Source: Macrostomum hystrix (taxonomy: Eukaryota > Animalia > Platyhelminthes). Taken from it: a DNA stretch of 64,000 bases. Positions 23,792 through 51,232 of the stretch are shown in pieces. The position numbers and the translations under genes were made by a program. Where the stretch lies: NCBI GenBank assembly GCA_950097015.1, contig CATNEN010000014.1, positions 1,364,001 through 1,428,000 on the forward strand, read 5' to 3'. The number at the start of each line of letters is the position of its first letter. Position 1 is the first letter of the stretch. Below the pieces are notes generated by a model, which searched no databases, had not been told where the DNA came from, and worked only from the letters and a program-made list of their open reading frames with translations.

Positions 23792-24193
23792 TCAGCAGTC
23801 GCCAGCTTGCTGCTGCTCATCCAGCAGCTTGAGCTCGGCGTCGGCCTCCAGAAACATTGGCTCCTGGCCGCACAGCTCTCGGTGCTGCTCCAGCAGGCTG
23901 TGCAGCTTCAGCCTGGCTGCCGCCAAGCGATGCTCAGTGTCCGGCACCATCATCTGCGACTCGCGCAGAACCTCCTGGCGCTTGTGCAGCCGGTGCTCGG
24001 CGTCATCAGCGTCCACGGCGTTGCCGATGTCCGGCGCCCCCGACTTCAACGCCTCCAGCTGGGCCTGAAGGCTGGCAGATTCAGCCTTGTACACCTGCAG
24101 CTCCTTTACCAGGCGGCGAATCACACCTGTGTAGATGCGCACCTGCTTCAGGGCGGCAGCTACCATCGGCGATGGGGTGGAAGTCAGAGACAT
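23792..24193 (-). CDS. TBCA: Tubulin-specific chaperone A (cofactor A), intronless, divergent
   Basis: LKQVRIYTGVIRRLVKE...KRQEVLRESQMMVPDTEHRLAAARLKL matches the TBCA pattern (QIKIKTGVVKRLVKE...KQAEILQESRMMIPDCQRRL). Likely start is the ATG at 24193 (133 aa) within ORF 23792..24259. Confidence 0.85.
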   Translation of the reverse strand: MSLTSTPSPMVAAALKQVRIYTGVIRRLVKELQVYKAESASLQAQLEALKSGAPDIGNAVDADDAEHRLHKRQEVLRESQMMVPDTEHRLAAARLKLHSLLEQHRELCGQEPMFLEADAELKLLDEQQQAGDC

Positions 24194-24491
24194 CGTGGAG
24201 TCCAGTTGCTGCTGCTGTTGCTTCTTATTTAAATAAGCTTTTGGCTGTCCCTTTGACAATTTTAACTATTTTACTCTCTTCCTCTGCTAAAGATATCTCC
24301 TTGTATTTCAATCCAAAGCCTAGACTGTTGCGTTCTAGACGAGTTGGCAGAAAACAATAGTCTATGGCCGCTAGAGGTGCCTCTTCTGTTAGCAAAAAAT
24401 AAAAGTGCACTGTAAGCTTTTTCTCATGGACATCTATATGCAACACCTGGACTGAAAGCCGGAAAAAACTCGCGATTGTTTTACCTGATGA

Positions 24492-26024: not shown

Positions 26025-26385
26025 ATAAATGTAAACGTGAGTGAGGCTGTGAATGTAAGTAAGGCTGTGAATGTGAGTGAGGCTGCAAATGTAAGTGAGG
26101 CTGTGAATGTGAGTGAGGCTGTGAATGTGACTGAGGCTGTGAATGTGAGTGAGGCTGTAAATGTAAGTGAGGCTGTGAATGTGAGTGAGGCTGTGAATGT
26201 GAGTGAGGCTGTAAATGTGAGTGAGGCTGTGAATGTGAGTGAGGCTATAAATGTGAGTGAGGCTGTGAATGTGAGTAAGGCTGTGTATGTAAGTGAGGCT
26301 GCGAATGTGAGTGGAACTGTGAATGTGAGTGAGGCTGTGAATAAAGTTGTGAGTGTGAATAAGGCTGTGAATGAGGCTGTGAATG
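26025..26385. repeat. 18-bp minisatellite
   Basis: Unit gtgagtgaggctgtgaat; also present degenerately in each spacer of the following array. Confidence 0.9.
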
Positions 26386-29300: not shown

Positions 29301-32300
29301 TAATACTCAATCTGTTTTTGGTCCTTATCTGTTGGAGGTGTGATTGACAGTTTTGCATGCAGTCATGAAGCTACACTGTTCATTATTGACACCAGGTTGA
29401 TATAAACGTATCTTTTTTTGACTACAATACTTACATTAACAATACCAATATTCTTGCGCAATGCCGTTAGCACCCCCAGTTTTAGGCCTCTCCAACTGTT
29501 GCGAAATGTCGAAAAAATCGAGCTTCTGTTTCGGTCTCAAGGTTTGTGCTGTGCACGAGGTTGTAAATGTGGCTATGAATGTTAGTGAAGATGTGAATGA
29601 GGCTGTGAATGTGAGTAAGGCTGTGAATGTAAGTGAGGCTGCGAATGTGAGTGGGGCTGTGAATGTGAGTGAGGCTGTGAATAAAGTTGTGAGTGTGAAT
29701 AAGGCTGTGAATGAGGCTGTGAATGATTTCACAGCGCTTAAGATTTGCAGCATGTCTGTGTCATTTTGAATAGCTGTATATCCCTCCCATTGTGTGTCAC
29801 TTCTGTGTTATCCATTGCTTACTGTATATTGACAGCAGCGGATCTCACAGTGTTTATGATTTGCAGCATGTCTGTGTCATTTTGAATAGCTGTATATCCC
29901 TCCCATTGTGTGTCACTTCTGTGTTATCCACTGCGTACTGTATATTGACAGCAGCGGATCTCACAGTGTTTATGATTTGCAGCATGTCTGTGTCATTTTG
30001 AATAGCTGTATATCCCTCCCATTGTGTGTCACTTCTGTGTTATCCACTGCGTACTGTATATTGACAGCAGCGGATCTCACAGTGTTTATGATTTGCAGCA
30101 TGTCTGTGTCATTTTGAATAGCTGTATATCCCTCCCATTGTGTGTCACTTCTGTGTTATCCACTGCGTACTGTATATTGACAGCAGCGGATCTCACAGTG
30201 TTTATGATTTGCAGCATGTCTGTGTCATTTTGAATAGCTGTATATCCCTCCCATTGTGTGTCACTTCTGTGTTATCCATTGCTTACTGTATATTGACAGC
30301 AGCGGATCTCACAGTGTTTATGATTTGCAGCATGTCTGTGTCATTTTGAATAGCTGTATATCCCTCCCATTGTGTGTCACTTCTGTGTTATCCACTGCGT
30401 ACTGTATATTGACAGCAGCGGATCTCACAGTGTTTATGATTTGCAGCATGTCTGTGTCATTTTGAATAGCTGTATATCCCTCCCATTGTGTGTCACTTCT
30501 GTGTTATCCACTGCGCACTGTATATTGACAGCAGCGGATCTCACAGTGTTTATGATTTGCAGCATGTCTGTGTCATTTTGAATAGCTGTATATCTCTCCC
30601 ATTGTGTGTCACTTCTGTGTTATCCACTGCGTACTGTATATTGACAGCAGCGGATCTCAAGGGCTACTCAATGAATTAAAAATGCAGAAAAACTGAGTAT
30701 TCGAAACCCAAACTAGATCAGTGAGTCTGGCTGTGAATGAGGTACTGAATGAGGCAGTGAATGTGAATGAGGCTGTGAATTAGATCGGGTGAGCTAGCTT
30801 TAAAGCAAGTTATGCCTTGCTTGACTTGAACCAGGTAATTGTCATGATTGCGCAATAATCCCCTTTTTGTGTTAGTGTTTTATTTTTAATAGGAACGCAG
30901 TTCTGGGGTAAGTAATACTCAATCTGTTTTTGGTCCTTATCTGTTGGAGGTGTGATTGACAGTTTTGCATGCAGTCATGAAGCTACACTGTTCATTATTG
31001 ACACCAGGTTGATATAAACGTATCTTTTTTTGACTACAATACTTACATTAACAATACCAATATTCTTGCGCAATGCCGTTAGCACCCCCAGTTTTAGGCC
31101 TCTCCAACTGTTGCGAAATGTCGAAAAAATCGAGCTTCTGTTTCGGTCTCAAGGTTTGTGCTGTGCACGAGGTTGTAAATGTGGCTATGAATGTTAGTGA
31201 AGATGTGAATGAGGCTGTGAATGTGAGTAAGGCTGTGAATGTAAGTGAGGCTGCGAATGTGAGTGGGGCTGTGAATGTGAGTGAGGCTGTGAATAAAGTT
31301 GTGAGTGTGAATAAGGCTGTGAATGAGGCTGTGAATGATTTCACAGCGCTTAAAATTTGCAGCATGTCTGTGTCATTTTGAATAGCTGTATATCCCTCCC
31401 ATTGTGTGTCACTTCTGTGTTATCCACTGCGTACTGTATATTGACAGCAACGGATCTCACTGTGTTTATGATTTGCAGCATGTCTGTGTCATTTTGAATA
31501 GCTGTATATCCCTCCCATTGTGTGTCACTTCTTTGTTATCCACTGCGTACTGTATATTGACAGCAGCGGATCTCACAGTGTTTATGATTTGCAGCATGTC
31601 TGTGTCATTTTGAATAGCTGTATATCCCTCCCATTGAGTGTCACTTCTTTGTTATCCACTGCTCACTGTATATTGACAGCAGCGGATCTTACAGTGTTTA
31701 TGATTTGCAGCATGTCTGTGTCATTTTGAATAGCTGTATATCTCTCCCATTGTGTGTCACTTCTGTGTTATCCACTGCGTACTGTATATTGACAGCAGCG
31801 GATCTCACAGTGTTTATGATTTGCAGCATGTCTGTGTCATTTTGAATAGCTGTATATCCCTCCCATTGTGTGTCACTTCTGTGTTATCCACTGCGTACTG
31901 TATATTGACAGCAGCGGATCTCACAGTGTTTATGATTTGCAGCATGTCTGTGTCATTTTGAATAGCTGTATATCTCTCCCATTGTGTGTCACTTCTGTGT
32001 TATCCACTGCGTACTGTATATTGACAGCAGCGGATCTCAAGGGCTACTCAATGAATTAAAAATGCAGAAAAACTGAGTATTCGAAACCCAAACTAGATCA
32101 GTGAGTCTGGCTGTGAATGAGGTACTGAATGAGGCAGTGAATGTGAATGAGGCTGTGAATTAGATCGGGTGAGCTAGCTTTAAAGCAAGTTATGCCTTGC
32201 TTGACTTGAACCAGGTAATTGTCATGATTGCGCAATAATCCCCTTTTTGTGTTAGTGTTTTATTTTTAATAGGAACGCAGTTCTGGGGTAAGTAATACTC

Positions 32301-35300
32301 AATCTGTTTTTGGTCCTTATCTGTTGGAGGTGTGATTGACAGTTTTGCATGCAGTCATGAAGCTACACTGTTCATTATTGACACCAGGTTGATATAAACG
32401 TATCTTTTTTTGACTACAATACTTACATTAACAATACCAATATTCTTGCGCAATGCCGTTAGCACCCCCAGTTTTAGGCCTCTCCAACTGTTGCGAAATG
32501 TCGAAAAAATCGAGCTTCTGTTTCGGTCTCAAGGTTTGTGCTGTGCACGAGGTTGTAAATGTGGCTATGAATGTTAGTGAAGATGTGAATGAGGCTGTGA
32601 ATGTGAGTAAGGCTGTGAATGTAAGTGAGGCTGCGAATGTGAGTGGGGCTGTGAATGTGAGTGAGGCTGTGAATAAAGTTGTGAGTGTGAATAAGGCTGT
32701 GAATGAGGCTCTGAATGATTTCACAGCGCTTAAGATTTGCAGCATGTCTGTGTCATTTTGAATAGCTGTATATCCCTCCCATTGTGTGTCACTTCTGTGT
32801 TATCCACTGCGTACTGTATATTGACAGCAGCGGATCTCACAGTGTTTATGATTTGCAGCATGTCTGTGTCATTTTGAATAGCTGTATATCCCTCCCATTG
32901 AGTGTCACTTCTTTGTTATCCACTGCTCACTGTATATTGACAGCAGCGGATCTCACAGTGTTTATGATTTGCAGCATGTCTGTGTCATTTTGAATAGCTG
33001 TATATCCCTCCCATTGTGTGTCACTTCTGTGTTATCCACTGCGTACTGTATATTGACAGCAGCGGATCTCACAGTGTTTATGATTTGCAGCATGTCTGTG
33101 TCATTTTGAATAGCTGTATATCCCTCCCATTGTGTGTCACTTCTGTGTTATCCACTGCGTACTGTATATTGACAGCAGCGGATCTCACAGTGTTTATGAT
33201 TTGCAGCATGTCTGTGTCATTTTGAATAGCTGTATATCCCTCCCATTGTGTGTCACTTCTGTGTTATCCATTGCTTACTGTATATTGACAGCAGCGGATC
33301 TCACAGTGTTTATGATTTGCAGCATGTCTGTGTCATTTTGAATAGCTGTATATCCCTCCCATTGTGTGTCACTTCTGTGTTATCCACTGCGTACTGTATA
33401 TTGACAGCAGCGGATCTCACAGTGTTTATGATTTGCAGCATGTCTGTGTCATTTTGAATAGCTGTATATCCCTCCCATTGTGTGTCACTTCTGTGTTATC
33501 CACTGCGCACTGTATATTGACAGCAGCGGATCTCACAGTGTTTATGATTTGCAGCATGTCTGTGTCATTTTGAATAGCTGTATATCTCTCCCATTGTGTG
33601 TCACTTCTGTGTTATCCACTGCGTACTGTATATTGACAGCAGCGGATCTCAAGGGCTACTCAATGAATTAAAAATGCAGAAAAACTGAGTATTCGAAACC
33701 CAAACTAGATCAGTGAGTCTGGCTGTGAATGAGGTACTGAATGAGGCAGTGAATGTGAATGAGGCTGTGAATTAGATCGGGTGAGCTAGCTTTAAAGCAA
33801 GTTATGCCTTGCTTGACTTGAACCAGGTAATTGTCATGATTGCGCAATAATCCCCTTTTTGTGTTAGTGTTTTATTTTTAATAGGAACGCAGTTCTGGGG
33901 TAAGTAATACTCAATCTGTTTTTGGTCCTTATCTGTTGGAGGTGTGATTGACAGTTTTGCATGCAGTCATGAAGCTACACTGTTCATTATTGACACCAGG
34001 TTGATATAAACGTATCTTTTTTTGACTACAATACTTACATTAACAATACCAATATTCTTGCGCAATGCCGTTAGCACCCCCAGTTTTAGGCCTCTCCAAC
34101 TGTTGCGAAATGTCGAAAAAATCGAGCTTCTGTTTCGGTCTCAAGGTTTGTGCTGTGCACGAGGTTGTAAATGTGGCTATGAATGTTAGTGAAGATGTGA
34201 ATGAGGCTGTGAATGTGAGTAAGGCTGTGAATGTAAGTGAGGCTGCGAATGTGAGTGGGGCTGTGAATGTGAGTGAGGCTGTGAATAAAGTTGTGAGTGT
34301 GAATAAGGCTGTGAATGAGGCTGTGAATGATTTCACAGCGCTTAAGATTTGCAGCATGTCTGTGTCATTTTGAATAGCTGTATATCCCTCCCATTGTGTG
34401 TCACTTCTGTGTTATCCACTGCGTACTGTATATTGACAGCAACGGATCTCACAGTGTTTATGATTTGCAGCATGTCTGTGTCATTTTGAATAGCTGTATA
34501 TCTCTCCCATTGTGTGTCACTTCTGTGTTATCCACTGCTTACTGTATATTGACAGCAGCGGATCTCACAGTGTTTATGATTTGCAGCATGTCTGTGTCAT
34601 TTTGAATAGCTGTATATCCCTCCCATTGTGTGTCACTTCTGTGTTATCCATTGCTTACTGTATATTGACAGCAGCGGATCTCACAGTGTTTATGATTTGC
34701 AGCATGTCTGTGTCATTTTGAATAGCTGTATATCCCTCCCATTGTGTGTCACTTCTGTGTTATCCACTGCGTACTGTATATTGACAGCAGCGGATCTCAA
34801 GGGCTACTCAATGAATTAAAAATGCAGAAAAACTGAGTATTCGAAACCCAAACTAGATCAGTGAGTCTGGCTGTGAATGAGGTACTGAATGAGGCAGTGA
34901 ATGTGAATGAGGCTGTGAATTAGATCGGGTGAGCTAGCTTTAAAGCAAGTTATGCCTTGCTTGACTTGAACCAGGTAATTGTCATGATTGCGCAATAATC
35001 CCCTTTTTGTGTTAGTGTTTTATTTTTAATAGGAACGCAGTTCTGGGGCAAGTAATACTCAATCTGTTTTTGGTCCTTATCTGTTGGAGGTGTGATTGAC
35101 AGTTTTGCATGCAGTCATGAAGCTACACTGTTCATTATTGACACCAGGTTGATATAAACGTATCTTTTTTTGACTACAATACTTACATTAACAATACCAA
35201 TATTCTTGCGCAATGCCGTTAGCACCCCCAGTTTTAGGCCTCTCCAACTGTTGCGAAATGTCGAAAAAATCGAGCTTCTGTTTCGGTCTCAAGGTTTGTG

Positions 35301-38300
35301 CTGTGCACGAGGTTGTAAATGTGGCTATGAATGTTAGTGAAGATGTGAATGAGGCTGTGAATGTGAGTAAGGCTGTGAATGTAAGTGAGGCTGCGAATGT
35401 GAGTGGGGCTGTGAATGTGAGTGAGGCTGTGAATAAAGTTGTGAGTGTGAATAAGGCTGTGAATGAGGCTGTGAATGATTTCACAGCGCTTAAGATTTGC
35501 AGCATGTCTGTGTCATTTTGAATAGCTGTATATCCCTCCCATTGTGTGTCACTTCTGTGTTATCCACTGCGTACTGTATATTGACAGCAGCGGATCTCAC
35601 AGTGTTTATGATTTGCAGCATGTCTGTGTCATTTTGAATAGCTGTATATCCCTCCCATTGTGTGTCACTTCTTTGTTATCCACTGCGTACTGTATATTGA
35701 CAGCAGCGGATCTCACAGTGTTTATGATTTGCAGCATGTCCGTGTCATTTTGAATAGCTGTATATCCCTCCCATTGTGTGTCACTTCTGTGTTATCCACT
35801 GCGTACTGTATATTGACAGCAGCGGATCTCACAGTGTTTATGATTTGCAGCATGTCTGTGTCATTTTGAATAGCTGTATATTCCTCCCATTGTGTGTCAC
35901 TTCTGTGTTATCCATTGCTTACTGTATATTGACAGCAGCGGATCTCACAGTGTTTATGATTTGCAGCATGTCTGTGTCATTTTGAATAGCTGTATACCCC
36001 TCCCATTGTGTGTCACTTCTGTGTTATCCATTGCTTACTGTATATTGACAGCAGCGGATCTCACAGTGTTTATGATTTGCAGCATGTCTGTGTCATTTTG
36101 AATAGCTGTATATCTCTCCCATTGTGTGTCACTTCTGTGTTATCCACTGCGTACTGTATATTGACTGCAGCGGATCTCACAGTGTTTATGATTTGCAGCA
36201 TGTCTGTGTCATTTTGAATAGCTGTATATCCCTCCCATTGTGTGTCACTTCTGTGTTATCCACTGCGTACTGTATATTGACAGCAGCGGATCTCACAGTG
36301 TTTATGATTTGCAGCATGTCTGTGTCATTTTGAATAGCTGTATATCCCTCCCATTGTGTGTCACTTCTTTGTTATCCACTGCGTACTGTATATTGACAGC
36401 AGCGGATCTCACAGTGTTTATGATTTGCAGCATGTCTGTGTCATTTTGAATAGCTGCATATCCCTCCCATTGTGTGTCACTTCTGTGTTATCCACTGCGT
36501 ACTGTATATTGACAGCAGCGGATCTCACAGTGTTTATGATTTGCAGCATGTCTGTGTCATTTTGAATAGCTGCATATCCCTCCCATTGTGTGTCACTTCT
36601 GTGTTATCCACTGCGTACTGTATATTGACAGCAGCGGATCTCACAGTGTTTATGATTTGCAGCATGTCTGTGTCATTTTGAATAGCTGCATATCCCTCCC
36701 ATTGTGTGTCACTTCTGTGTTATCCACTGCGTACTGTATATTGACAGCAGCGGATCTCACAGTGTTTATGATTTGCAGCATGTCTGTGTCATTTTGAATA
36801 GCTGTATATCCCTCCCATTGTGAGTCACTTCTGTGTTATCCACTGCGTACTGTATATTGACTGCAGCGGATCTCACAGTGTTTATGATTTGCAGCATGTC
36901 TGTGTCATTTTGAATAGCTGTATATCCCTCCCATTGTGTGTCACTTCTTTGTTATCCACTGCTCACTGTATATTGACAGCAGCGGATCTCACAGTGTTTA
37001 TGATTTGCAGCATGTCTGTGTCATTTTGAATAGCTGTATATCTCTCCCATTGTGTGTCACTTCTGTGTTATCCACTGCGTACTGTATATTGACAGCAGCG
37101 GATCTCAAGGGCTACTCAATGAATTAAAAATGCAGAAAAACTGAGTATTCGAAACCCAAACTAGATCAGTGAGTCTGGCTGTGAATGAGGTACTGAATGA
37201 GGCAGTGAATGTGAATGAGGCTGTGAATTAGATCGGGTGAGCTAGCTTTAAAGCAAGTTATGCCTTGCTTGACTTGAACCAGGTAATTGTCATGATTGCG
37301 CAATAATCCCCTTTTTGTGTTAGTGTTTTATTTTTAATAGGAACGCAGTTCTGGGGTAAGTAATACTCAATCTGTTTTTGGTCCTTATCTGTTGGAGGTG
37401 TGATTGACAGTTTTGCATGCAGTCATGAAGCTACACTGTTCATTATTGACACCAGGTTGATATAAACGTATCTTTTTTTGACTACAATACTTACATTAAC
37501 AATACCAATATTCTTGCGCAATGCCGTTAGCACCCCCAGTTTTAGGCCTCTCCAACTGTTGCGAAATGTCGAAAAAATCGAGCTTCTGTTTCGGTCTCAA
37601 GGTTTGTGCTGTGCACGAGGTTGTAAATGTGGCTATGAATGTTAGTGAAGATGTGAATGAGGCTGTGAATGTGAGTAAGGCTGTGAATGTAAGTGAGGCT
37701 GCGAATGTGAGTGGGGCTGTGAATGTGAGTGAGGCTGTGAATAAAGTTGTGAGTGTGAATAAGGCTGTGAATGAGGCTGTGAATGATTTCACAGCGCTTA
37801 AGATTTGCAGCATGTCTGTGTCATTTTGAATAGCTGTATATCCCTCCCATTGTGTGTCACTTCTGTGTTATCCACTGCGTACTGTATATTGACAGCAGCG
37901 GATCTCACAGTGTTTATGATTTGCAGCATGTCTGTGTCATTTTGAATAGCTGTATATCCCTCCCATTGTGTGTCACTTCTTTGTTATCCACTGCGTACTG
38001 TATATTGACAGCAGCGGATCTCACAGTGTTTATGATTTGCAGCATGTCTGTGTCATTTTGAATAGCTGTATATCCCTCCCATTGAGTGTCACTTCTTTGT
38101 TATCCACTGCTCACTGTATATTGACAGCAGCGGATCTCACAGTGTTTATGATTTGCAGCATGTCTGTGTCATTTTGAATAGCTGTATATCCCTCCCATTG
38201 TGTGTCACTTCTTTGTTATCCACTGCGTACTGTATATTGACAGCAGCGGATCTCACAGTGTTTATGATTTGCAGCATGTCTGTGTCATTTTGAATAGCTG

Positions 38301-38600
38301 TATATCCCTCCCATTGTGTGTCACTTCTGTGTTATCCACTGCGTACTGTATATTGACAGCAGCGGATCTCACAGTGTTTATGATTTGCAGCATGTCTGTG
38401 TCATTTTGAATAGCTGTATATCTCTCCCATTGTGTGTCACTTCTGTGTTATCCACTGCTCACTGTATATTGACAGCAGCGGATCTCAAGGGCTACGCAAT
38501 AAAAAAAATGCAGAAATAACTGAGTATTCGAAACCCAAACTAGATCAGTGAGTCTGGCTGTGAATGAGGCAGTGAATCAGGCTGCAGTGAATGTGAGTGA
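26386..38600. repeat. Higher-order satellite: blocks of 116-bp monomers separated by a 684-bp spacer
   Basis: ORF starts recur every 116 bp. Spacer landmarks at 28081, 29461, 31073, 32453, 34065, 35213 and 37521 give periods 1380, 1612, 1380, 1612, 1148 and 2308 = 684 + n x 116. Confidence 0.97.
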
Positions 38601-38921
38601 GGCACATTGTACCTAATCTATGTTTCATACTCGTTGATGCACATCTTTCATTTTGAAATAAAGTAATATGCTGTAAAAATGAGTCACTACTGAAATGAGA
38701 CAGTCCACCCCTTTTGAGTCTAAAAGCATAATGGGTTTGACACGTTCCATGAATGTTAAATTATTTTGACAACCCCATTCCGAACCAATAAAAATTAGAG
38801 TGAACATTACTTGTTGATGTCAAACTGCCACTTCATATAAAATGGGACTTCAACTGGCTTTTCAAAAAGCCAGATTTCTAATTCTCAATTAATTTCATTT
38901 TTTCTATATATAATAATTCAA

Positions 38922-41900
38922 ATGTCCAAACAATTTGAGTTTATAAAACAGCTGATAAGCCGCAAAGGCAAACGCTATGACGTCGCTAAGCGGCAAAAGT
39001 CGTTTGAGAAAGAGCTCGCCGCGTCTGATCGATTTCAGTCAATGGTAAGTGAAAGTGAAGAGCATACTTTTACTAATAACTGCCCTGTCCCTACCACACT
39101 GCCCTGTCTCTACCACATTGCCCTGTCTCTACCACACTGCCCTGTCTCTACCACATTGCCCTGTCTCTACCACACTGCCCTGTCTCTACCACACTGCCCT
39201 GTCTCTACCACACTGCCCTGTCTCTACCACACTGCCCTGTCTCTACCACATTGCCCTGTCTCTACCACACTGCCCTGTCTCTACCACATTGCCCTGTCTC
39301 TACCACACTGCCCTGTATCTACCACATTGCCCTGTCTCTACCACACTGCCCTGTCTCTACCACACTGCCCTGTCTCTACCACATTGCCCTGTCTCTACCA
39401 CACTGCCCTGTCTCTACCACATTGCCCTGTCTCTACCACACTGCCCTGTCTCTACCACATTGCCCTGTCTCTACCACACTGCCCTGTCTCTACCACACTG
39501 CCCTGTCTCTACCACATTGCCCTGTCTCTACCACACTGCCCTGTCTCTACCACACTGCCCTGTCTCTACCACACTGCCCTGTCTCTACCACACTGCCCTG
39601 TCTCTACCACACTGCCCTGTCTCTACCACACTGCCCTGTCTCTACCACACTGCCCTGTCTCTACCACACTGCCCTGTCTCTACCACACTGCCCTGTCTCT
39701 ACCACACTGCCCTGTCTCTACCACACTGCCCTGTCTCTACCACACTGCCCTGTCTCTACCACACTGCCCTGTCTCTACCACACTGCCCTGTCTCTACCAC
39801 ACTGCCCTGTCTCTACCACACTGCCCTGTCTCTACCACACTGCCCTGTCTCTACCACACTGCCCTGTCTCTACCACACTGCCCTGTCTCTACCACATTGC
39901 CCTGTCTCTACCACACTGCCCTGTCTCTACCACACTGCCCTGTCTCTACCACATTGCCCTGTCTCTACCACACTGCCCTGCCTCTACCACACTGCCCTGT
40001 CTCTACCACACTGCCCTGCCTCTACCACACTGCCCTGTCTCTACCACACTGCCCTGTCTCTACCACACTGCCCTGTCTCTACCACACTGCCCTGTCTCTA
40101 CCACACTGCCCTGTCTCTACCACACTGCCCTGTCTCTACCACACTGCCCTGTCTCTACCACATTGCCCTGTCTCTACCACACTGCCCTGCCTCTACTCTA
40201 CCAATAACTGCAATTTCTCTACTCAGACTGATGCGTCTCAGCCCGGCTCAGCTCAGCAGCCGCCCGGCGCAGCTCAGCAGCCGCCCACCGCAGCTCAGCA
40301 GCCGCCCCTCGCAGCTCAGCAGCCGCCCACCGCAGCTCAGCAGCCACTCGCCGCAGCTCAGCAGCCGCCCCCCGCAGCTCAGCAGCCGCCCCCCGCAGCT
40401 CAGCAGCCGCCCCCCGCAGCTCAGCAGCCGCCCACCGCAGCTCAGCAGCCGCCCACCGCAGCTCAGCAGCCGCCCCCCGCAGCTCAGCAGCCGCCCACCG
40501 CAGCTCAGCAGCCACTCGCCGCAGCTCAGCAGCCGCCCACCGTAGCTCAGCAGCCGCCCACCGCAGCTCAGCAGCCGCCCACCGCAGCTCAGCAGCCGCC
40601 CGCCGCAGCTCAGCAGCCCAAGTCGCGTGCCGGGCAGGAGTATATTTGCCCATTCGGTGACTGCATGCCAATCAAAGAGTCCCGCTTTAGTGAACACATC
40701 AAAAGAGCGCATATGAATCTGATCGAAGAGACAAAACAAAATCTGGCAAAGGATGGGCTTCCTGAATTTATTCTGCACAAAAGAGCCCTCCAGATTCTGC
40801 GTGCTTCTGTTAAGCTTAACACGCATCAGCTGACTGCCGGCCCAATGGCAGAGAAGGCGGTACAGTGCGAAATCTGCGGCGAGTGGCGCAACGACACAAA
40901 TTTGCTGGCGAGCCACAGACGCAACAGCCACCCAGACGCAGCAAGAGCTGCAAAGGAGCAGAAGCTGACTGAGGCCAGAAGCAGAGTGCCGGCTAGACCA
41001 GCCGTGGCCGAGCACCCGTCGACAGACGACGTTGAGGCACTCTGTGCATTCTTGGCCAGCTCTCTCGGTGGGCGCAAGAAGCCGGCAACGGTACGCGAAA
41101 TTCGTTGCTACCTGAAGCGGCTGATGCGCTCACTTGACATCGACTCATTTAACTCACTGGTCATCGAAGACCAGCGCGACCGAATCAGCGCGTATTTGGA
41201 TAACCTTTCCTACTCGATGCTCAAGCAGAGCGTCTCTGCGCTGGAAAAAGTCGGCAACTTTATGGTCACCCGACGCTATCAACAAGTGATTGAGGATGGG
41301 CTGCTGCAGCATTTAACATCATACAGGCAGTCGACAAAGAATTGGACTGCTAGTTCCATGGGTCCCAAGGCAAAATATTACGCGGACCTGATGGACCGGA
41401 AGGAAGAAGAGCTCATGACCGGCGACCAAATTAAGGCCGTCTTCGAGATGAAGACCACCGTCCTGGAGGAGGCTAGGCGCACAAAAGACCGGTGAGTTCT
41501 TATAATCTTTAAAGTGGCACTTAGATTTTGAAGTGGCACTTAGATTTTGAAGTGGCACTTAGATTTTGAAGTGGCACTTAGATTTTGAAGTGGCACTTAG
41601 ATTTTAAAGTGGCACTTAGATTTTGAAGTGGCACTTAGATTTTGAAGTGGCACTTAGATTTTGAAGTGGCACTTAGATTTTAAAGTGGCACTTAGATTTT
41701 AAAGTGGCACTTAGATATTGAAGTGGCACTTAGATTTTAAAGTGGCACTTAGATTTTGAAGTGGCACCTAATCTTTGAAATGGCACCTAATCTTTGAAAT
41801 GGCACCTAATCTTTGAAATGGCACCTAATCTTTGAAATGGCACCTAATCTTTGAAATGGCACTTAATCATGGGATGAAAAAATCTTGGCCTCAACATTGA

Positions 41901-44225
41901 CACAGGACGGTGACATTCCTGGCCATCGGGATGTGTATTTGTTTCGGCGATGGAAACGCCAACCGGCAGGGCGTGGCCTCCGCCTGCAAAATTTCGGACG
42001 CACGCCGGTGGCTGAAGTCGCCGAATGAGCCTCTCAAAGTTAAAGAGCATAAATCAAATGAGGGCCACGGCTCAGCGTGGGCAAGTGTAACGCCGTGCGC
42101 AGACCTGGTGATGCAGGTCCTGGCGCAACGATTTGCGGAGAGCCCGAGCGACGACGCTCCGGCGTTTCTATTCCCGTACGGCTCTTTCGACCGCCTATTT
42201 TACCAGTATAGAAAAAGATACTCACCGCTGCTGCACAATGTCACTGTTTCTAAATTCCGCGAGTGGCTGGAAACGATGGGTCTGGAATCCGCCACGGCGG
42301 AAGAACAGCGCTTGATGGCAGACCATCAAAATCACACCGAAGGAGTGCAGCGCCGATTTTACCAGGTAAGATTTACTCAAGTTATCTATAAAATCGCTTC
42401 ACGAACTAGGAATTTCTCAAGCTGGAAGCTTTAATACATATATACTTGCTTTAGCAATAGCTTCACTTTCACTCTTTGAAAAGCTTCACTGTATAGTATT
42501 TTTTGAGAAATTATGAAACAAAAGAGTCCAAATAAGAATGTATTGTTAAAATTAAGTTTGCTTTTATTATTATTAACCTTTTTATCCCACCACTTTGCTA
42601 ATCAGACCCAGACTAAGAAAAGAAGAGAGAAGGGCCGCCAGCTCACAAAGCGACTGGTCACAGAGGGCGCCGGCGTGCGTGAAGAGGACGTAAACGCCAA
42701 GGCTCCGCTACTCGGCAACGACCTGCAATCGGCTGCTGGCAGCTTAGCGAGCAGAATTAACTGCGCCGCCAGTGAGTGCATTATTGTTAAATAAGCTTTG
42801 TGAATTGAGATTTTGATGAATTGTGACCTCAGTGAATTTCGTCAATTTGGCCAAGTGAATCAGGACCTCAGGGAGTCAGGACATAAGGGAATCGAAACCT
42901 GTATGCTTGTATGCCAAGTCGCAGTGTCGGTGCTATAAAGAAAGTAGCACCGACTTTCTATATTATATTTTTTTAATATAATGGGTGCAGAGGCTATAAC
43001 AATTATATAAATACATTATCAAATATGACACCGTTTTTTAGCTGCCGACGGCGGTATTCGCAGAAAGCCAGCCACTACCGCATCCGCAAAAGCCAAAGCC
43101 AAGCCGTGCCGGTGGCAGAAAACAACCGACGCTTCGGTGGCTGGTCCGAAGGCGAAACGGCCGAGTGCCGGCGCCGTTCTGCCTGAGAATGCTGCTGCTG
43201 GCGCCGTTCTGCCTGAGAATGCTGCTGCTGGCGCCGTTCTGCCTGAGAATGCTGCTGCTGGCGCCGTTCTGCCTGAGAATGCTGCTGCTGGCGCCGTTCT
43301 GCCTGAGAATGCTGCTGCTGGCGCCGTTCTGCCTGGGAATGCTGCTGCCGGCGCCGTTCTGCCTGAGAATGCTGCTGCTGGCGACTTTCTCGACAGCTTG
43401 ACAAATCTGTCGTTCTCTTCTTCGCTGGCAGATTTTAACCAAGAGCTGCTTGAGGAATTGTACAGCTCGGCTGCGGGCTCCTCTGGCGTCGCTGGCGCTG
43501 ATCTGCCCGCGGAGTCGGCTGCGGGCTCCTCTGGCGTCGCTGGCGCTGATCTGCCCACGGAGTCGGCTGCAGGCTCCTCTGGCGTCGCTGGCGCTGATCT
43601 GCCCGCGGAGTCGGCTGCGGGCTCCTCTGGCGTCGCTGGCGCTGATCTGCCCACGGAGTCGGTTGCGGGCTCCTCTGGCGTCGCTGGCGCTGATCTGCCC
43701 GCGGAGTCGGTTGCGGGCTCCTCTGGCGTCGCTGGCGCTGATCTGCCCACGGAGTCGGCTGCGGGCTCCTCTGGCGTCGCTGGCGCTGATTTGCCCGCGG
43801 AGTCGGTTGCGGGCTCCTCTGGCGTCGCTGGCGCTGATCTACCCGCGGAGTCGGCTGCGGGCGCAACCCGCAAAAGGCGGCTGCCACCAGCTGCCGACCA
43901 ATCCTGCAAACGGCAGAAACTGGAGCCTGGCACGCTGGTGCTAGGGTACTGGCCGACCAATGGCGAATGTTGGTGGCCAGCAATGGTTTGTCTGCCACGA
44001 CGCGGTTCGAGATGCACAAGAGGAGTGAGCATGATACATGTGCATGTGCAATTTTTCGACGCCCCACCGTCAAGTGCGTGGTTGCACCAGTGGCGGTTCG
44101 TGGAAAATTCAATGGCAGCACCACGAGGCGCATCACAAGAGCTGAGAGAAGCCTTCGAGCAAATGGCAGCTGCTTCAAAAATAAGTGCTGAAGACCGTAT
44201 TGACAGATTCCTGAACTCTGTGTAA
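38922..44225 (+). CDS. Crypton-like tyrosine recombinase fused to two C2H2-type zinc fingers and a C-terminal PWWP domain. Exons 38922-39044, 40227-41491, 41906-42365, 42606-42771, 43042-44225 (3198 nt, ~1065 aa)
   Basis: All four introns are GT-AG with matching phases (0, 2, 0, 1): ATG|gtaagt...ctcag|ACT; CG|gtgagt...cacag|G; CAG|gtaaga...atcag|ACC; A|gtgagt...ttttag|CT. Recombinase motifs: NRQG (R at 41964), VKEHK, SKFR, HQNH-x8-Y (FY, Y at 42360). Zinc fingers: CPFGDC..HIKRAH (from 40647) and CEIC..HRRNSH (from 40866). PWWP: PGTLVLGYWPTNGECWWPAMV...HVQFFDAPPSSAW (~43920-44110). Confidence 0.8.
39070..40195. repeat. 19-bp minisatellite filling intron 1 of the recombinase gene
   Basis: Unit ctctaccacactgccctgt. 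Confidence 0.97.
40245..40620 (+). repeat. Coding 21-bp repeat (AAQQPPx, ~18 units) in exon 2
   Basis: Unit gcagctcagcagccgcccacc, in frame. Confidence 0.9.
41507..41862. repeat. 19-bp minisatellite in intron 2 (two sub-types)
   Basis: ttagattttgaagtggcac, then ctaatctttgaaatggcac. Confidence 0.95.
43168..43862 (+). repeat. Coding repeats in exon 5: 30-bp (GAVLPENAAA x7) and 48-bp (AGSSGVAGADLPAESA x8)
   Basis: Visible in ORF 43137..44225; unit lengths are multiples of 3. Confidence 0.9.
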
Positions 44226-45467
44226 CTTTCTACGCTTAATTAGGCCAAAAAACGAAGGCAGCAGATTCTGATCGATTCAAAGAGGGTGATTATAGGAAGA
44301 CAGTTCTAGGAGAGTGATCGAAAGCAGATTGGGCAAGCTCAATTTAATGCATAGCAGCGGTGCCAACACCTGTGCTGCGCGGTTTTTTCTCTGTTGCACT
44401 TTTTCTGCGCTTTTGTACTATTTCAACATGCTATTAAAACTATTTTCTAACTTGTGAAACATGTCAATATAATATAATATTTGAAACTTGTAACTGAAAA
44501 TTCGTATGCACATAAAATATAATTTGAAAATGTGAAAATAAAGTAAATAATAAATTTATATATATAACTGAAATAGCTGGACTTGTGTCTAATACGATTG
44601 ACCTCAAACCCTTTAAAGCTGCGACCGAAATATTTTCCCATTTCTACTATTAGTAGCTTATAATGCAAAATTTACAGTTTCTTTGCAAAACTTTTATGTG
44701 TCATATTTCGAAATATTCTGGTCGGATATATTTTTTTGGAGTGTCATATCTGTGATGTGGCCTGTCGGGTATCCCCTACGATGTGCGTCATTTCTTTGTT
44801 TCGTGTCATCACCGCTAACATGGGGGAGGCGGTGCGATGGTCGCTAAGCGCCTAGTTCGCCGGTCTGGGGCGTGCCGCTCCGTCGCTTGTGCGACAAGTG
44901 CCCGGGCCCCCTGCAAATACATAGAGAATGTTTATACATAGCAATTTTGGTTGGGTCTTCGATAAGAATCACTGAATATCTTGACAATGCTAACTTTGAA
45001 AGTAAGCACATCGTAAGGGGTGTAAAATTTAGATCCACATGATGCACTTTCACGAAAATCGGCCATTCTGTTTGGGAGCTATCGTGAAGTATATGAAGTA
45101 TGCAAAGTATGAAGTATATGCACTGCAACACAGCTGCATTGTATTAGGGAGAAGCGACAGAAAATGAGCAGCCAGAAAAGCTGCCAGTCTCAAGACATGG
45201 ACACCAGCATCATAAATATTTTTGCTGATTTTTGCTGTTGGCAAATTAATGATTGGAACATGTGTAGTAAAATACTCGTATCTGTGTTTAAATTAGAGGT
45301 GCAAAACAGGAAAGCAAAATAATAATTACACTTTTCGCGAGACCTCGGTACAAACTCTCGATGCTAGCTTGGATTCTTAGAAACACTTCATTTACGCTCG
45401 TACTATAGACAGGTATATTTAATGCTGTTAATAGGCTAAAATGCAAATAAGCAAATTATCAGTGTCA

Positions 45468-46944
45468 CTAATCATCGATGCAGTCCCCTAGCACATCGGG
45501 GCAGTAGGGCAGGAATCCCGCACAATTGTCCGAGCCGCACAGGCAGGCCAGCAGGCGGCGGTGGACGTCAGGAGGGGGCGGCGGCCCGTAGGAGATGGTG
45601 AGCTCCTCGCCGGGCTGGACGGGCCGTCTAGCGAACAGCGCCAGCCACGGGATCTCGGAGTCGATGCGAACCGGTACCACGGACACGTTGGGCGAACAGC
45701 TGTGGTTAAGGTACCTAGCGGGGTGGCTGGACTCGCTGGCGTCAACGATTGTCAGCTGCTGGCTTTGCTGTCCCTCAGCGGACAGCCGCTTTGTTAACGG
45801 CTGGTCATGGAGATCTTCGGCTGACACATAGAGCCGCTTTCGCAGCTGATCTGACTGCTGTTGCTGGCCTGCAGTCAGCTGATCTGACTGCTGTTGCTGG
45901 CCTGCAGTCAGCTGATCTGACTGCTGTTGCTGGCCTGCAGTCAGCTGATCTGACTGCTGTTGCTGGCCTGCAGTCAGCCGATCTGACTGCTGTTGCTGGC
46001 CTGCAGTCAGCTGATCTGACTGCTGTTGCTGGCCTGCAGTCAGCTGATCAGGCTGTTGCTGCTGACACGTCTGTGCCAGCTCAGCTTGTGTCGACTGCAC
46101 CATCAGCCGCTCTCGCAGTACGAAAATGAAGTTGCCGCAGCCGGTGCCACGCAGCGCCTCTCTGCGCAGCATCTCGGTTGGGCTAATGACTTCGCCCGGA
46201 TAAACGCCCACGAAATCACCTGGCTGGAGGCCGAGGCGAGTTCGCGCCCCGAGTCCAGCCGGGGTGCCAGTGTCAAACACCTCTAATAGGTCGGCGGGCG
46301 GGCAGCGGAGGCCTCGTCCGACTGTGCGGTTGCGGCAGACCGACGACAATATCGTCGCGTCCGCACAGGCGCAGCTGGCGCCGCATTCGTGAACCCTGGG
46401 CAGCGGCGCCTGTCTGTGGACAGGTTGGAAGTCGGGTCAGGGAATGTATGAGGACAAGAAGCAAAGACTGGGAAGATTGCAGATAAATAATATTCAGCAT
46501 TTTTAAGGGGGCTGGGGGCACGGACGCATCAATGGCGACTGTCGACTCGCAGCCAGCGAGGGGCACACAGTGCCCGGGAGTTGGCTCTAGTGAGCATAAA
46601 TTTCACGACAAGCCCCAAAGCCTTCTCTCCGCGGCTGCGCGTCAAATAAATGTGGCCTGTCGCCCAGGACTGGAGCTGACAAGCTGTGCGCACCTGTCAT
46701 CATCGCACAGGTAGGCCATTCGCAGGCGGCCCGTGTCGCTGCAGTACCAGGAGGAGAAGGCAGCGCTCAGGCAGGCGCAGGTGTCAGCGCCCGTGCAGCA
46801 GTTAGCAACGGCGCCGGAGGAGACCCGGCAGTCGCAGCTGACCCGCAGCTGGACGAAGCGGCTCCAGTCGGTGGTAGGACCATAGACAACAGGGCACGAG
46901 TTGGAATTTGAGCTCGAGTTCGAATCGGCGCTGCTGTCGTGGTC
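45468..46944 (-). CDS. SETMAR: SETMAR-like histone-lysine methyltransferase (pre-SET/SET/post-SET, no transposase). Exons 46944-46694 and 46413-45468; first exon not resolved
   Basis: Pre-SET cysteines (CDC..CC..CAC; VHECGASCAC..CRNRTV). SET motifs GVYPGEV, RYLNHSCSPN..VPVRIDSEIPWLALFA..GEELTISYG. Post-SET CLCGSDNCAGFLP. The VRIDS.P.LALFA and C.C...C.GFLP strings are typical of the SETMAR SET domain. Phase-2 intron AG|gtgcgc 46693...46414 ccacag|A. Confidence 0.8.
45838..46070 (-). repeat. In-frame 33-bp repeat (QQQQSDQLTAG, ~6-7 units) inside the SET domain
   Basis: Unit ctgatctgactgctgttgctggcctgcagtcag on the + strand. Confidence 0.9.
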
Positions 46945-47612
46945 CTGAAGGCGATTACAAGGACTCCAATCACTACAATTGATTTACTCACTACACTACA
47001 ATTCCCTAGTGTAAAATGTGCACCTGCACTATCTAGGGTAGAAATTGGGGTGAGTGTGACGGCATTCCCAGTCTACGGACTGAACAGCTGTACACACCGT
47101 TTGGAAGCGCCGCGCAATAGCTGGGGCTGTGCGGTGTCGGTGCAGGTGCTATTTCTAGTTGTTTTCTATATTCTACTTTAAAAGGCTTGAAGAAAACTTT
47201 GCGATGGATTAGCAAATGAACACAGTTAAGCAGGCTTTGATATTTATAGCATTTCAAAACTTGGCAAAATTTACCACAAAATCCGGCGCACCAAAGAGAG
47301 CACAAACTGTGCTAGCTACTCACAAGTAGCAAGAATGCATATATTTGTTGAACAGCAGGCTTACTATAGGGGAGGGTAAATGAGAAATTTCTATGCAGCT
47401 GCGACGAGATTGCAGATAAACGGAGAAAAAAGCACTGGGATCGCACAGGTGCAAAGAAAATAGCCGTGTGATTTCCTGGTAAAGCGACAACGCCACAGAA
47501 AACTCGCCAAATGCATAACAAAAGTGAATATGCTCACTGATACATAGCGGGAGAAACTAAGTTTAGGAAACCAACGACAGCATAAGCAGCAGCCAGCTCT
47601 CGACTGCAGAGT

Positions 47613-48242
47613 CTAAGCCGCCAAACCGCAGCCACCCAGCTGCATCTGGAACACCTCGATGGTGTCATTGTCCTCCATTTGCAGCGAGCTCGGAGTGTCA
47701 CTGTCCAGAACGTTGGCGCCATCGAAATAGAACCGGATGGCCTGCAGGAGCGGGAGCGGGTTGGTGGGTCTGGAGATGAACTTCTGAAGATTAACAGGCC
47801 GAGATTTGGGATTTGAACGGCTTGGGATCTGAAGATTAACAGGCCAAGATTTGGGATTTGAAGATTAACAGGCCGAGATTTGAGATTTGAACGGCTTGGG
47901 ATCTGAAGATTAACAGGCCGAGATTTGGGATTTGAAGATTAACAGGCCGAGATTTAGGATTTGAACTGCTTGGAATCTGAAGATTAACAGGACGAGATTT
48001 GGGATTTTAAGGGCTGTGGGTCTGAACGGTTTTCGCTCGGCTTCGGCCCCGCTCACCTGGTCCCTCGTGCCGGTGCGCTGGCAGTAGGCCGCCATGAGCT
48101 TGCTAAGCTGGGTGGTTCGCTTGATGAGGAACTGCACCACCGAGCCGTTCTTGCTCTGCACGCACACGCTGATTTGATGCGGCGATGGCGTGCCAGAGCC
48201 GCCTCCTTCGCTGATTTCGGCGCTGAAGTCCGCGCGAGTCAT
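47613..48242 (-). CDS. SUMO: Small ubiquitin-like modifier (SUMO), divergent. Exons 48242-48057 and 47741-47613 (104 aa)
   Basis: Joined protein ...HQISVCVQSKNGSVVQFLIKRTTQLSKLMAAYCQRTGTRDQ|AIRFYFDGANVLDSDTPSSLQMEDNDTIEVFQMQLGG-CGLAA*: SUMO pattern with di-glycine and a short propeptide. Phase-0 intron CAG|gtgagc...ctgcag|GCC. An upstream in-frame ATG also exists at 48272. Confidence 0.88.
47783..48005. repeat. Degenerate tandem repeat in the SUMO intron
   Basis: Recurring gaagattaacaggccgagatttgggattt. Confidence 0.85.
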
Positions 48243-48279
48243 GACAACTAGAGCTGAAACAAACTGACTCATGAGTAAT

Positions 48280-49490
48280 AAGACTGTGACCTCCACCCAC
48301 CTAAGACTGTGACCTCCACCCTCCTAAGACTGTGACCTCCACCGTCCAAAGCATGTGCCCTCCGCCCACCTAAGACTGTGACCTCCACCCTCCTAAGCCT
48401 GTGACCTCCACCCTCCTAAGACTGTGACCTCCGCCCACCTAAGACTGTGCCCTCCGTCCACCTAAGACTGTGACCTCCACCCACCTAAGACTGTGACCTC
48501 CGCCCACCTAAGACTGTGCCCTCCGCCCACCTAAGACTGTGACCTCCACCCACCTAAGACTGTGACCTCCACCCACCTAAGCCTGTGACCTCCACCCACC
48601 TAAGCCTGTGACCTCCACCCACCTAAGACTGTGACCTCCACCGTCCAAAGCATGTGCCCTCTGCCCACCTAAGACTGTGACCTCCACCCTCCTAAGCCTG
48701 TGACCTCCACCCTCCTAAGACTGTGACCTCCACCCACCTAAGACTGTGACCTCCACCCACCTAAGACTGTGACCTCCACCCACCTAAGACTGTGACCTCC
48801 GCCCACCTAAGACTGTGCCCTCCGCCCACCTAAGACTGTGACCTCCACCCACCTAAGACTGTGACCTCCACCCACCTAAGACTGTGACCTCCACCCACCT
48901 AAGACTGTGACCTCCACCCACCTAAGCCTGTGACCTCCACCCACCTAAGCCTGTGACCTCCACCCACCTAAGACTTGTGACCTCCACCCTCCTAAGACTG
49001 TGACCTCCACCCTCCTAAGACTGTGACCTCCACCGTCCAAAGCATGTGCCCTCCGCCCACCTAAGACTGTGACCTCCACCCTCCTAAGCCTGTGACCTCC
49101 ACCCTCCTAAGACTGTGACCTCCGCCCACCTAAGACTGTGACCTCCGCCCACCTAAGACTGTGACCTCCACCCACCTAAGACTGTGACCTCCGCCCACCT
49201 AAGACTGTGCCCTCCGCCCACCTAAGACTGTGACCTCCACCCACCTAAGACTGTGACCTCCACCCAAAGCCTGTGCCCTCCACCCACCTAAGCCTGTGCC
49301 CTCCGCCCACCTAAGACTGTGACATCCACCACCTAAGACTGTGACATCCACCACCTAAGACTGTGACCTCCAAACTCCTAAGAATGTGACCTCCACCCAC
49401 CTAAGGCTGTGACCTCCACCCTCATAAGACTGTGCCCTCCGCCCACCTAAGGCTGTGACCTCAACCTCCTAAGACTGTGACCTCGGCCGT
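48280..49490. repeat. 23-bp minisatellite immediately upstream of SUMO
   Basis: Unit ctaagactgtgacctccacccac. Confidence 0.95.
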
Positions 49491-50599
49491 CTTTAGTGGG
49501 CGGAGTACGATAGAACTATGCTATAAACTAATAACAATACAGTACAGAATCACACATAAGCTAAAGACAAGAAATGTATAGCCAGAAAGAATTTTCTAAT
49601 TGTATTTTGCAGTTTGTTATTTATTCAACTGACTAAAAATTGAACGCGACGGTTAAAAATTTTAGTTTACACAACATGGCGATGTTCACTTAGTTCACTT
49701 AGAATTTTAGAAAACATTTTAGTAAAGTTAGCTTTTTATAAGAACACATGTCTCGGCTGCACTAAAAGACAGAATATCAACTAATAAATCATTAAATGAC
49801 ATTGCGAGCTGGGGTGGATGTGCTGGAACGCAGTCCTTGTGTGCTGGTGTGCAGAACTGACTCACTGCCTGACAGTGGCTTGCTGGAGAGCAGCAGAAAA
49901 ATGTTCAGAGAGCAGCTGATACTAACCAACTGTTAATAGGCAAAGCATGTTATTGTTAGGCAAACAGAAAGTTAAAGGTAAATTTTAGGTAAATAGTGTC
50001 ATCTAGAGTTCAGTTGTAGCTATGGATATAGCTATGGGATGTTACGGATACGTTATTGAAACCATATCTTGTTTTACGCATCTTGTGTTCTTAAATATAG
50101 TTTGTGCTGAAGTAAGTTCAACAAAGCCTACAATGGGAGCTTATAATTCCTTGGTGTTTGGGACTCAAGGTCTGCAGAAACTTCAATGCCGCATACAAAT
50201 TGGGGTTGGTTTTTTTCCACCCCACAAAATTACCAAGCAGGCTGGCCCTCAGCAACGGGCCTAGGCGGATACTTCTTGTAAATGTGCAGCGCAAAATATG
50301 CTCACTGCTACGCTCTGAATGGCTCTTCATGTCGACCAGGACACCGGCTGCCTCCAGCTCCGAGAGGCACTCTTCGTCGCGTCGCTTTGCCCGGCGCTCC
50401 TGTTTTAAGGATTATGTATTAATAAGTTTAGTATGCCTTACCTTATTAGCTAAAGCATATTGCACCAGTATCCTATTGGTTTAGGCTTTTTATCGATTGA
50501 ATGGTGCAGCAGATATGTTGTCTTGCGATCATATCTCTCCAAGTTTCTCAAATCTCGAATGTACAAGCAACTATTGCAATAAGAATTATTGAATTTATG

Positions 50600-51230
50600 G
50601 CCTCACAGTTATCAAGCCCGCTTTGCAGAAGCTATTTAACTCAATCCTTAGGCCTGGATGTACTCCTAAACAATGGTCACTAGCATGAATAAGCCAAATC
50701 TACAAGAAGGGGTCTCGCAGTGATCCAAAAAACTGCAGACCAATAAGCGTCCCGCCAGCCATCGCAAGACTATTTGCATCAATTTACGATAATTTAATTT
50801 AATTTACAATAAATTAGAAGCACACATCAAAGCCCTGAACTCACTATCGGCTAGTCAAATAGGAAGCAGAAAAAGTTGTCGGACTTCCGATCACATCGCA
50901 ACCCTATTGACATTAATTCATAAAAATAAGAAGAAGAATAGACCTTTTTTGTAGACCAGGAATTCTTTAGATAGCGCAAAGGCCACGAACTACGTACAAA
51001 GGAAATTCGATATATTTATAGCTCGTACTAACAAAATATGGCTGGGGGTGACTTTGACATGGTTCACCAGCCAACCCTAGTCACACGACTAAAGCAGTTG
51101 GGCGTGAACCCAGCAATAATAAGTACTATTGAGATTATGTACTCAAGCGCGAAATTTCACTTCAAAGCACAGCTACTGAGGCGTGTCAAATCACAAATGG
51201 TGTCAGACAAGGATGCCCCCTCTTGCATAC
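50600..51230 (+). pseudogene. Non-LTR (LINE) reverse transcriptase remnant
   Basis: Peptides across frameshifts: LQKLFNSIL..PKQW; IYKKGSRSDPKNCRPISV; QIGSRKSCRTSDHIATL; DFDMVHQPTLVTRLKQLGV..IEIMYS; GVRQGCP (51199-51219). Confidence 0.85.
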
Positions 51231-51232
51231 TA

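Follow-up and report, generated by a model that had tools for sequence, protein, structure and literature searches.

In a 64,000-nucleotide (nt) stretch of the flatworm Macrostomum hystrix genome (GCA_950097015.1, contig CATNEN010000014.1, positions 1,364,001–1,428,000; hereafter the window), a five-exon gene on the + strand is predicted to encode a tyrosine recombinase (YR) that very probably carries a C-terminal PWWP domain. The gene model is real and intact. Its joined frame of 3198 nt encodes 1065 amino acids (aa) plus a stop codon without an internal stop, and all four introns run from GT to AG, in phases 0, 2, 0 and 1, in agreement with the original prediction of five exons, canonical phase-consistent splice sites and ~1065 aa. 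The motif GTRAG occurs five times on the + strand within 38850–44300, and four of the five are the gene's four donors. G+C content is 56–63% in exons 2–5 versus 29–36% in introns 2–4. Tandem repeats, with units that are multiples of three bases, account for ~330 residues of the 1065-aa protein, and 19-base repeats fill introns 1 and 2. The features of the gene are as follows.

38922..39044, + strand: exon 1, 41 aa, basic N-terminus; ATG start, donor GTAAGT, phase 0; without homologue support
39045..40226, + strand: intron 1, 19-bp tandem repeat in 58.8 copies
40227..41491, + strand: exon 2, with AQQPP repeat, two C2H2-like fingers, core-binding domain and first helix of the catalytic domain
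40249..40618, + strand: AQQPP coding repeat of 21 bp, 17.6 copies
40647..40712, + strand: C2H2-like finger 1 (C..C...H...H), second Cys not conserved in homologues
40866..40931, + strand: C2H2 finger 2 (CxxC..H...H), conserved in the family
41025..41276, + strand: predicted helical core-binding (SAM-like) domain, paired by hhalign with XerD residues 6 to about 95
41492..41905, + strand: intron 2, phase 2, 19-bp tandem repeat; homology continues across it with no gap
41906..42365, + strand: exon 3, recombinase catalytic domain with R483 (41964), K512 (42051), S578 (42249), R581 (42258), H606 (42333) and Y615 (42360)
42606..42771, + strand: exon 4, encoding the recombinase's C-terminal helix and the beginning of the linker; reading through its donor gives a stop after 678 aa
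42772..43041, + strand: intron 4, predicted, the junction that creates the fusion; donor GTGAGT, phase 1
43042..44225, + strand: exon 5, linker of low complexity with coding repeats of 30 bp and 48 bp, PWWP domain and stop
43869, + strand: basic RKRR patch in exon 5
43917..44222, + strand: MSH6/NSD-like PWWP domain; cage residues W983 and F1009 retained, Glu980 where the Tyr would stand
44537..44554, + strand: two AATAAA poly(A) signals, the earliest 3' of exon 3

By sequence comparison, exons 2–4 are part of an existing eukaryotic family. A search with exon 3 against 1.84 billion representatives returned seven matches: five near-full cores (P0002–P0006, 28–33% identical to exon 3), one fragment and one repeat artefact, the latter being the top row (P0001), which was dropped. 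P0007 and P0009–P0011 are fragments and were excluded from the counts. Identity over the catalytic core did not exceed 33%, the sole 50% match being an 84-aa fragment. With P0012, added by an alignment search, the family is small and comprises six near-full homologues of 464–801 aa, all of which share the two finger motifs, the helical region and the catalytic motifs. The window protein is 21–24% identical to the homologues, which are 29–52% identical among themselves. A hidden Markov model built from homologues only (seven sequences) aligned as a single block to residues 163–640 of the window protein with 200 bits, and this unbroken alignment through junctions 2–3 and 3–4 provides independent support for both. 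One of 43 pattern matches yielded a spliced homologue on a 2.5-kb metagenome contig (L001), which lacks introns where the window gene has its introns 2 and 3. Within its positions 1–2502, this contig contains many short introns, keeps R, K, R, H and Y, and terminates after a donor-like site.

One near-full homologue, P0006, is a hypothetical protein of Macrostomum lignano with two further copies in that species; the three copies may reflect the duplicated karyotype of M. lignano. These proteins (BOX15_Mlig028483; PAA91811.1, PAA87763.1, PAA93120.1) have the same fingers, core-binding and catalytic motifs as the window protein, as well as a repeat-rich N-terminus and a repeat linker after the recombinase. 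They differ in having 21% core identity, and their partial records end inside the linker, so that they are silent on any C-terminal domain. Two of the records, P0006 and P0008, end in a post-recombinase repeat linker like that preceding the PWWP domain in the window protein.

Relatives of the family were not found among pattern matches in viral contigs (0/15) or prokaryotic genomes (0/30), nor in a phage search. Searches of Pfam, NCBIfam, PHROGs and PDB sequences left the recombinase family unrecognized, and a word-index search with exon 3, restricted to longer proteins, gave no homologue, which is a weak negative. In the Atlas, the recombinase core lay near large unnamed eukaryotic clusters in 26 of 30 matches (scores 0.96–0.97), with Mollusca and Chordata as the commonest named phyla, and also near a bacterial cluster in which phage integrases make up 15% of the members. 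This placement suggests a wider clade that is probably widespread among animals.

Alignment and structural modelling place the family among the YRs. The original prediction had put a catalytic Arg at 41964 and a catalytic Tyr at 42360, a Lys in VKEHK, SKFR in place of HxxR, and an H-x8-Y motif; these correspond to R483, Y615, K512 (the second K of VKEHK, at 42051), S578, and H606 with Y615, respectively. R483, K512, R581, H606 and Y615 are invariant in all six homologues. The His of HxxR is Thr in all six homologues and in L001, and Ser (S578) in the window protein, indicating that the missing His is a family trait. Pfam did not detect a recombinase domain in exon 3, contrary to expectation, and of the expected zinc-finger matches only zf-Di19 appeared, in the finger 1 region and below the cut-off; the expected PWWP match was obtained. 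The assignment of a recombinase domain to exon 3 thus comes from homologues, fold and profile comparison.

The exon-3 model reached a predicted local distance difference test score of 82.6 when folded with the alignment and 42 as a single sequence. In an unbiased structure search of 48,161 chains, all 22 chains with Z≥5 were recombinases, recombinase-fold regulators (among which we take MrpR and SroF to be) or topoisomerases, and unrelated folds began at Z 2.9. The expected tyrosine-recombinase fold for 41906–42365 was thereby borne out in all the best structural matches, which have the YR or topoisomerase IB fold. The top three were tied: Leishmania topoisomerase I (Z 8.1, root-mean-square deviation 3.0 over 131 residues), IntI (7.7) and XerA (7.6). 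Since a best Z of ~8 is weak by itself, it is the uniformity of the match list that provides the evidence for the modelled fold. All ten best Foldseek rows in the PDB were recombinase-type, and most named top rows in the Foldseek viral library were integrases or VLF-1. Using hhalign, the family profile matched 70 XerD-like sequences with a probability of 91.5, an E-value of 8.7e-7 and a score of 52.9, above all 21 controls (12.4 for the reversed profile and 9.5–25.4 for 20 column shuffles). At a low threshold, TxxR paired with the HxLR of XerD, and the final His and Tyr also paired.

Topoisomerases accounted for six of the 22 structural matches, including the top one. Topoisomerase IB uses an R-K-R-H-Y pentad and is not known to have a XerD-type core-binding domain. 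Both the shared catalytic fold and the pentad are present in the window protein; however, Pfam Topoisom_I matched neither this protein nor seven homologues, and a XerD-type core-binding domain is found instead of the topoisomerase IB cap. Strand cleavage and exchange are a predicted activity of the window protein, suggested by its sequence and model.

The PWWP domain was recognized by Pfam PF00855 at 27.5 bits against a cut-off of 25.6 (E 4.4e-6). Its nearest relatives are the PWWP domains of MSH6 (E 7e-5), then NSD3 and NSD2 (the first PWWP of NSD2/3), and it scored 0.89 to a PWWP cluster in the Atlas; a word-index search among longer proteins found nothing, again a weak negative. The methyl-lysine cage of PWWP domains consists of three aromatics, Y18/W21/F44 in HDGF2, and PWWP domains are also described to bind DNA (PMC3119473). 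By alignment, the window domain keeps two of the three (W983 and F1009), with E980 opposite the Tyr of GYPWWP. With one cage aromatic absent, reading of methylated histone H3 lysine 36 (H3K36me) is doubtful, and the original claim that the domain reads H3K36me2/3 is not a safe inference. W975, located in a two-residue insertion, might compensate for the missing aromatic. The DNA binding of PWWP domains makes chromatin tethering plausible, with H3K36me3 reading uncertain.

Splicing of exon 4 to exon 5, as predicted from the sequence, is very probably real, and with it the recombinase–PWWP fusion. The junction 4–5 donor, GTGAGT, lies in the needed phase, and was equalled in 2.0% of 20,000 shuffles, in a test made post hoc. 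G+C changes sharply at both ends of intron 4, from 0.57 to 0.30 at the donor and from 0.27 to 0.63 at the acceptor. Intron 4 contains neither AATAAA nor ATTAAA, and no poly(A) hexamer occurs between 42360 and 44433. The exon-5 frame has no Met upstream of mid-PWWP and is thus an exon without its own start codon. Spliced leaders are a flatworm feature, and an AUG supplied by one at the 43042 acceptor was considered; it was rejected because it would read another frame (ORF 43042–43401), not the PWWP domain.

Host-type genes and repeats were found on both sides of the recombinase gene. Upstream, a tubulin binding cofactor A gene (TBCA, PF02970, E 2e-19) is located at 23795–24265 on the − strand. 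Downstream, a SETMAR-like gene at 45471–46983 (−), convergent and tail to tail with the recombinase gene, encodes pre-SET, SET and post-SET domains with no transposase seen, and includes a 33-base Gln-rich repeat within the SET domain. The possibility that it is element cargo was rejected, as it is an ordinary host-type gene whose closest solved structure is SETMAR (E 9e-22), and the proximity of a lysine-methyl writer to a PWWP gene may be a coincidence. Further downstream, at 47616–48323 (−), lies a two-exon SUMO-like gene with Rad60-SLD matches and a repeat-filled intron. The other end of the window holds tandem duplicate long open reading frames at 1–4599 (−), of 703 aa and at least 660 aa, signal-peptide-like and with a weak Ig-like match (E 0.22), and a broken BEL/Pao-type long terminal repeat retrotransposon fragment at 19922–21233 (−), with Integrase_H2C2 and DUF5641 in different frames. 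Two satellites are present. A higher-order satellite at 26037–38603 is composed of ~eight units, each with an 18-base tract, 4–14 copies of a 116-base repeat and a ~550-base unique spacer; internal units are near-identical and the last is 91%. A 23-base satellite of ~560 copies spans 51230–63994 and reaches the window end.

The original prediction had stated that no reverse transcriptase (RT) or polB is adjacent, and this was upheld: a Pfam scan of 105 of the 111 frames in 4600–28500 and 44226–51300 (six satellite duplicates were left out, and short exons are missable) found no RT, RNase H, polB or capsid families. No convincing terminal repeats surround the gene, and inverted repeats near it, considered as element ends, were at chance level or derived from the intron repeats. 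The gene starts ~320 bases past the 12-kb satellite array, and an insertion into this satellite was considered but not supported, as the last unit of the array is diverged (91%) and its edge is no clean cut. One AT-rich microsatellite tract, of 15 bases at 44466, is the only such tract in 38501–45470. In the family tree, the window protein forms the longest branch (1.62 vs 0.36–0.83); it keeps 22 of 42 family-invariant columns, whereas left-out homologues keep 75–91%.

Comparison with known systems showed partial likeness to several. Like Cryptons, the window gene is a eukaryotic YR without RT or RNase H, and animal Cryptons are also described as having no terminal repeats (PMC3212892, Kojima and Jurka 2011). 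CryptonA and CryptonI are described as having no C-terminal domain, whereas the window protein ends in a PWWP; CryptonF carries GCR1_C in that position. DUF3504 (PF12012), present in CryptonA, gave no match at E≤1 in exon 3 or seven homologue sequences. The two N-terminal fingers and TxxR/SxxR in place of HxxR also set the window protein apart from Cryptons, CryptonV being compared by description only. DIRS and Ngaro elements have RT–RNase H beside the YR and terminal repeats, neither of which was found at the window locus, and unclassified YR groups are described (PMC6681497). Nimavirus (majanivirus) YRs, likewise compared by description only, share the C2H2 finger, SAM-like and YR layout. 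They are described as distinct from the YRs of DIRS, Starship and Crypton, with five of seven key residues and some multi-exon genes; they reside in 200–580 kb viral genomes within crustacean telomere or ribosomal DNA repeats, and the available text mentions no PWWP (PMC10871703). Unlike an endogenous nimavirus or Polinton, the window gene has no viral core genes, polB or capsid among its neighbours in the Pfam scan, with TBCA, the SET gene, the SUMO-like gene and the BEL/Pao fragment there instead.

The attachment of a reader to a DNA-inserting enzyme, or its recruitment by one, is a feature that the predicted window protein shares with chromoviruses, PHD/Chromo fusions, SETMAR and LEDGF–HIV integrase. 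Chromodomain retrotransposons are known reader–transposon fusions (10.64898/2026.05.21.726589), and a survey reports 823 candidate transposon–chromatin reader fusions in 172 genomes, mostly PHD/Chromo, with 31% validated by RNA (bioRxiv 10.1101/2021.11.30.470311). These differ from the window protein in joining DDE integrases or transposases to Chromo or PHD domains, and the main text of the survey includes no recombinase. ZMYM2/3/4, QRICH1, KCTD1, KIAA1958 and WOC are host genes in which a domain of YR origin is combined with zinc fingers or other modules (PMC3212892; PMC13465315); they are of the DUF3504 type and described as mostly lacking catalytic residues, whereas the window gene belongs to another YR lineage and keeps them. 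No YR–PWWP fusion was found in the available parts of the literature searched, where papers with both terms use them apart, although the survey's fusion table could hold one. The suggestion that the fusion is undescribed thus applies to the PWWP tail, a new element by predicted splicing, and not to the part from zinc fingers through helical region to YR, which belongs to an existing family and resembles the nimavirus layout.

The original prediction offered two alternatives, a transposon or a domesticated gene, and both stand. Tentatively, and with somewhat less than even confidence, we favour an intact Crypton-type YR gene into which a host PWWP exon was likely captured, and which by now is probably resident rather than mobile. 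Residence is suggested by the host genes on both sides, the lack of terminal repeats, the single copy in the window, the long branch and the 22 of 42 columns kept. The long branch combined with retained catalytic residues suits a gene whose role changed after exon gain. Several observations weigh on the other side. Animal Cryptons have no terminal repeats, and many Crypton-type copies contain introns (PMC13465315), so that missing ends and introns are no proof of domestication. Domesticated Crypton domains are described as usually without catalytic residues (PMC3212892; PMC13465315), which the window protein retains. Fold scores are modest, with all Foldseek rows falling short of E 0.001, and the top Z belongs to topoisomerase IB. 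R483 and K512 are out of register with the XerD Arg and Lys in hhalign, and their putative assignments come from invariance and spacing. The methyl-lysine cage is incomplete and the four splice junctions are predicted. No PWWP was found in the seven homologues scanned, and none is precomputed for P0012; as the near-full homologues come from 1.9–4.5 kb contigs or are flagged partial, this weak negative cuts both ways.

A live Crypton-like transposon with its own PWWP, excising as a circle and biasing its insertion by chromatin, appears rather unlikely. All five catalytic residues are kept, the layout resembles nimavirus integrases, animal Cryptons are described without terminal repeats, and reader–transposon fusions are common in the survey cited above. 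CryptonV families are described as targeting microsatellites (PMC8869645, PMC5753468), and the gene starts shortly after the satellite. However, there is no second copy or fragment of the recombinase gene in the 64-kb window, the satellite ends in a diverged unit, and housekeeping genes flank the locus. The long branch, the loss of 20 of 42 invariant residues and the absence of any protein more than 33% identical over the catalytic core among the 1.84 billion representatives, save the 84-aa fragment, also argue against this reading.

It is improbable that the fusion does not exist, with the recombinase ending at the stop past the exon-4 donor (678 aa) and the PWWP exon belonging to another transcript or a minor isoform. 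The exon-4 frame is open to a stop seven codons beyond the donor, 678 aa is an ordinary size among homologues in which no PWWP was seen, and eight ATG-to-GT mini-exons of the right phase lie within intron 4; moreover, 31% is a low rate of RNA validation among the surveyed candidates. None of the eight mini-exons has a GTRAG donor, however, 250 bases are too short for a promoter, no poly(A) signal precedes 44433, and the composition shifts exactly at the donor and not at the stop. Less probable still is a loss of recombination that left a DNA-binding regulator tethered to chromatin or an enzyme that, built on the recombinase fold, nicks and closes DNA like topoisomerase IB: the topoisomerase matches, the absent HxxR His, the changes beside R483 and K512 at residues conserved without exception in six homologues, and the Crypton-derived regulators ZMYM, QRICH1 and KCTD1 (PMC3212892) point that way, but the XerD-type core-binding domain, the family-wide replacement of His by Thr, which is not decay, and the R, K, R, H and Y kept here, unlike in domesticated DUF3504 genes described without most of the tetrad, point away from it.

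If the favoured reading of a resident YR gene with a captured PWWP exon is correct, the core-binding and catalytic domains would clamp a DNA site, as family knowledge suggests, and, by analogy with Cre/XerD and CryptonF, Y615 would attack a phosphate and so link enzyme and DNA through a 3'-phosphotyrosine. Active CryptonF is described as carrying out recombination between a short motif at its terminus and a target matching that motif, resulting in excisions, inversions and translocations (PMC9977147). Four subunits of the window protein would then exchange strands between cognate sites, with the zinc fingers supplying extra DNA contacts. The PWWP domain, on a flexible linker of ~300 residues, may keep the enzyme at nucleosomes; DNA contacts together with a partial cage are a likelier basis for this than tight H3K36me3 reading. 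Cognate sites that the ancestral element left behind would then be cut and rejoined with a bias set by chromatin. A further reading, to which we give little probability, is a host-owned and catalytically active YR guided by a chromatin reader. Such an enzyme would be the animal equivalent of Cre/Flp and would rearrange or resolve DNA, e.g. the tandem arrays filling this genome, at sites marked in chromatin.

To our knowledge, nearly all eukaryotic tyrosine recombinases described belong to mobile elements, and most that hosts have retained are catalytically dead. Targeting through a reader has so far been known for DDE integrases that carry a chromodomain or a PHD finger. As Pfam, NCBIfam and PHROGs all miss the present family, animal genomes probably contain more of its members than are annotated. 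A YR with its active site and a PWWP domain, if true, would represent a transposon equipped with a new means of targeting or else a chromatin-guided host recombinase, and either would offer a clear test of site choice by YR elements. A host-owned, active and reader-steered YR, if true, would be the first case of a Crypton-type recombinase domesticated with its chemistry intact and with a histone-reader module added.

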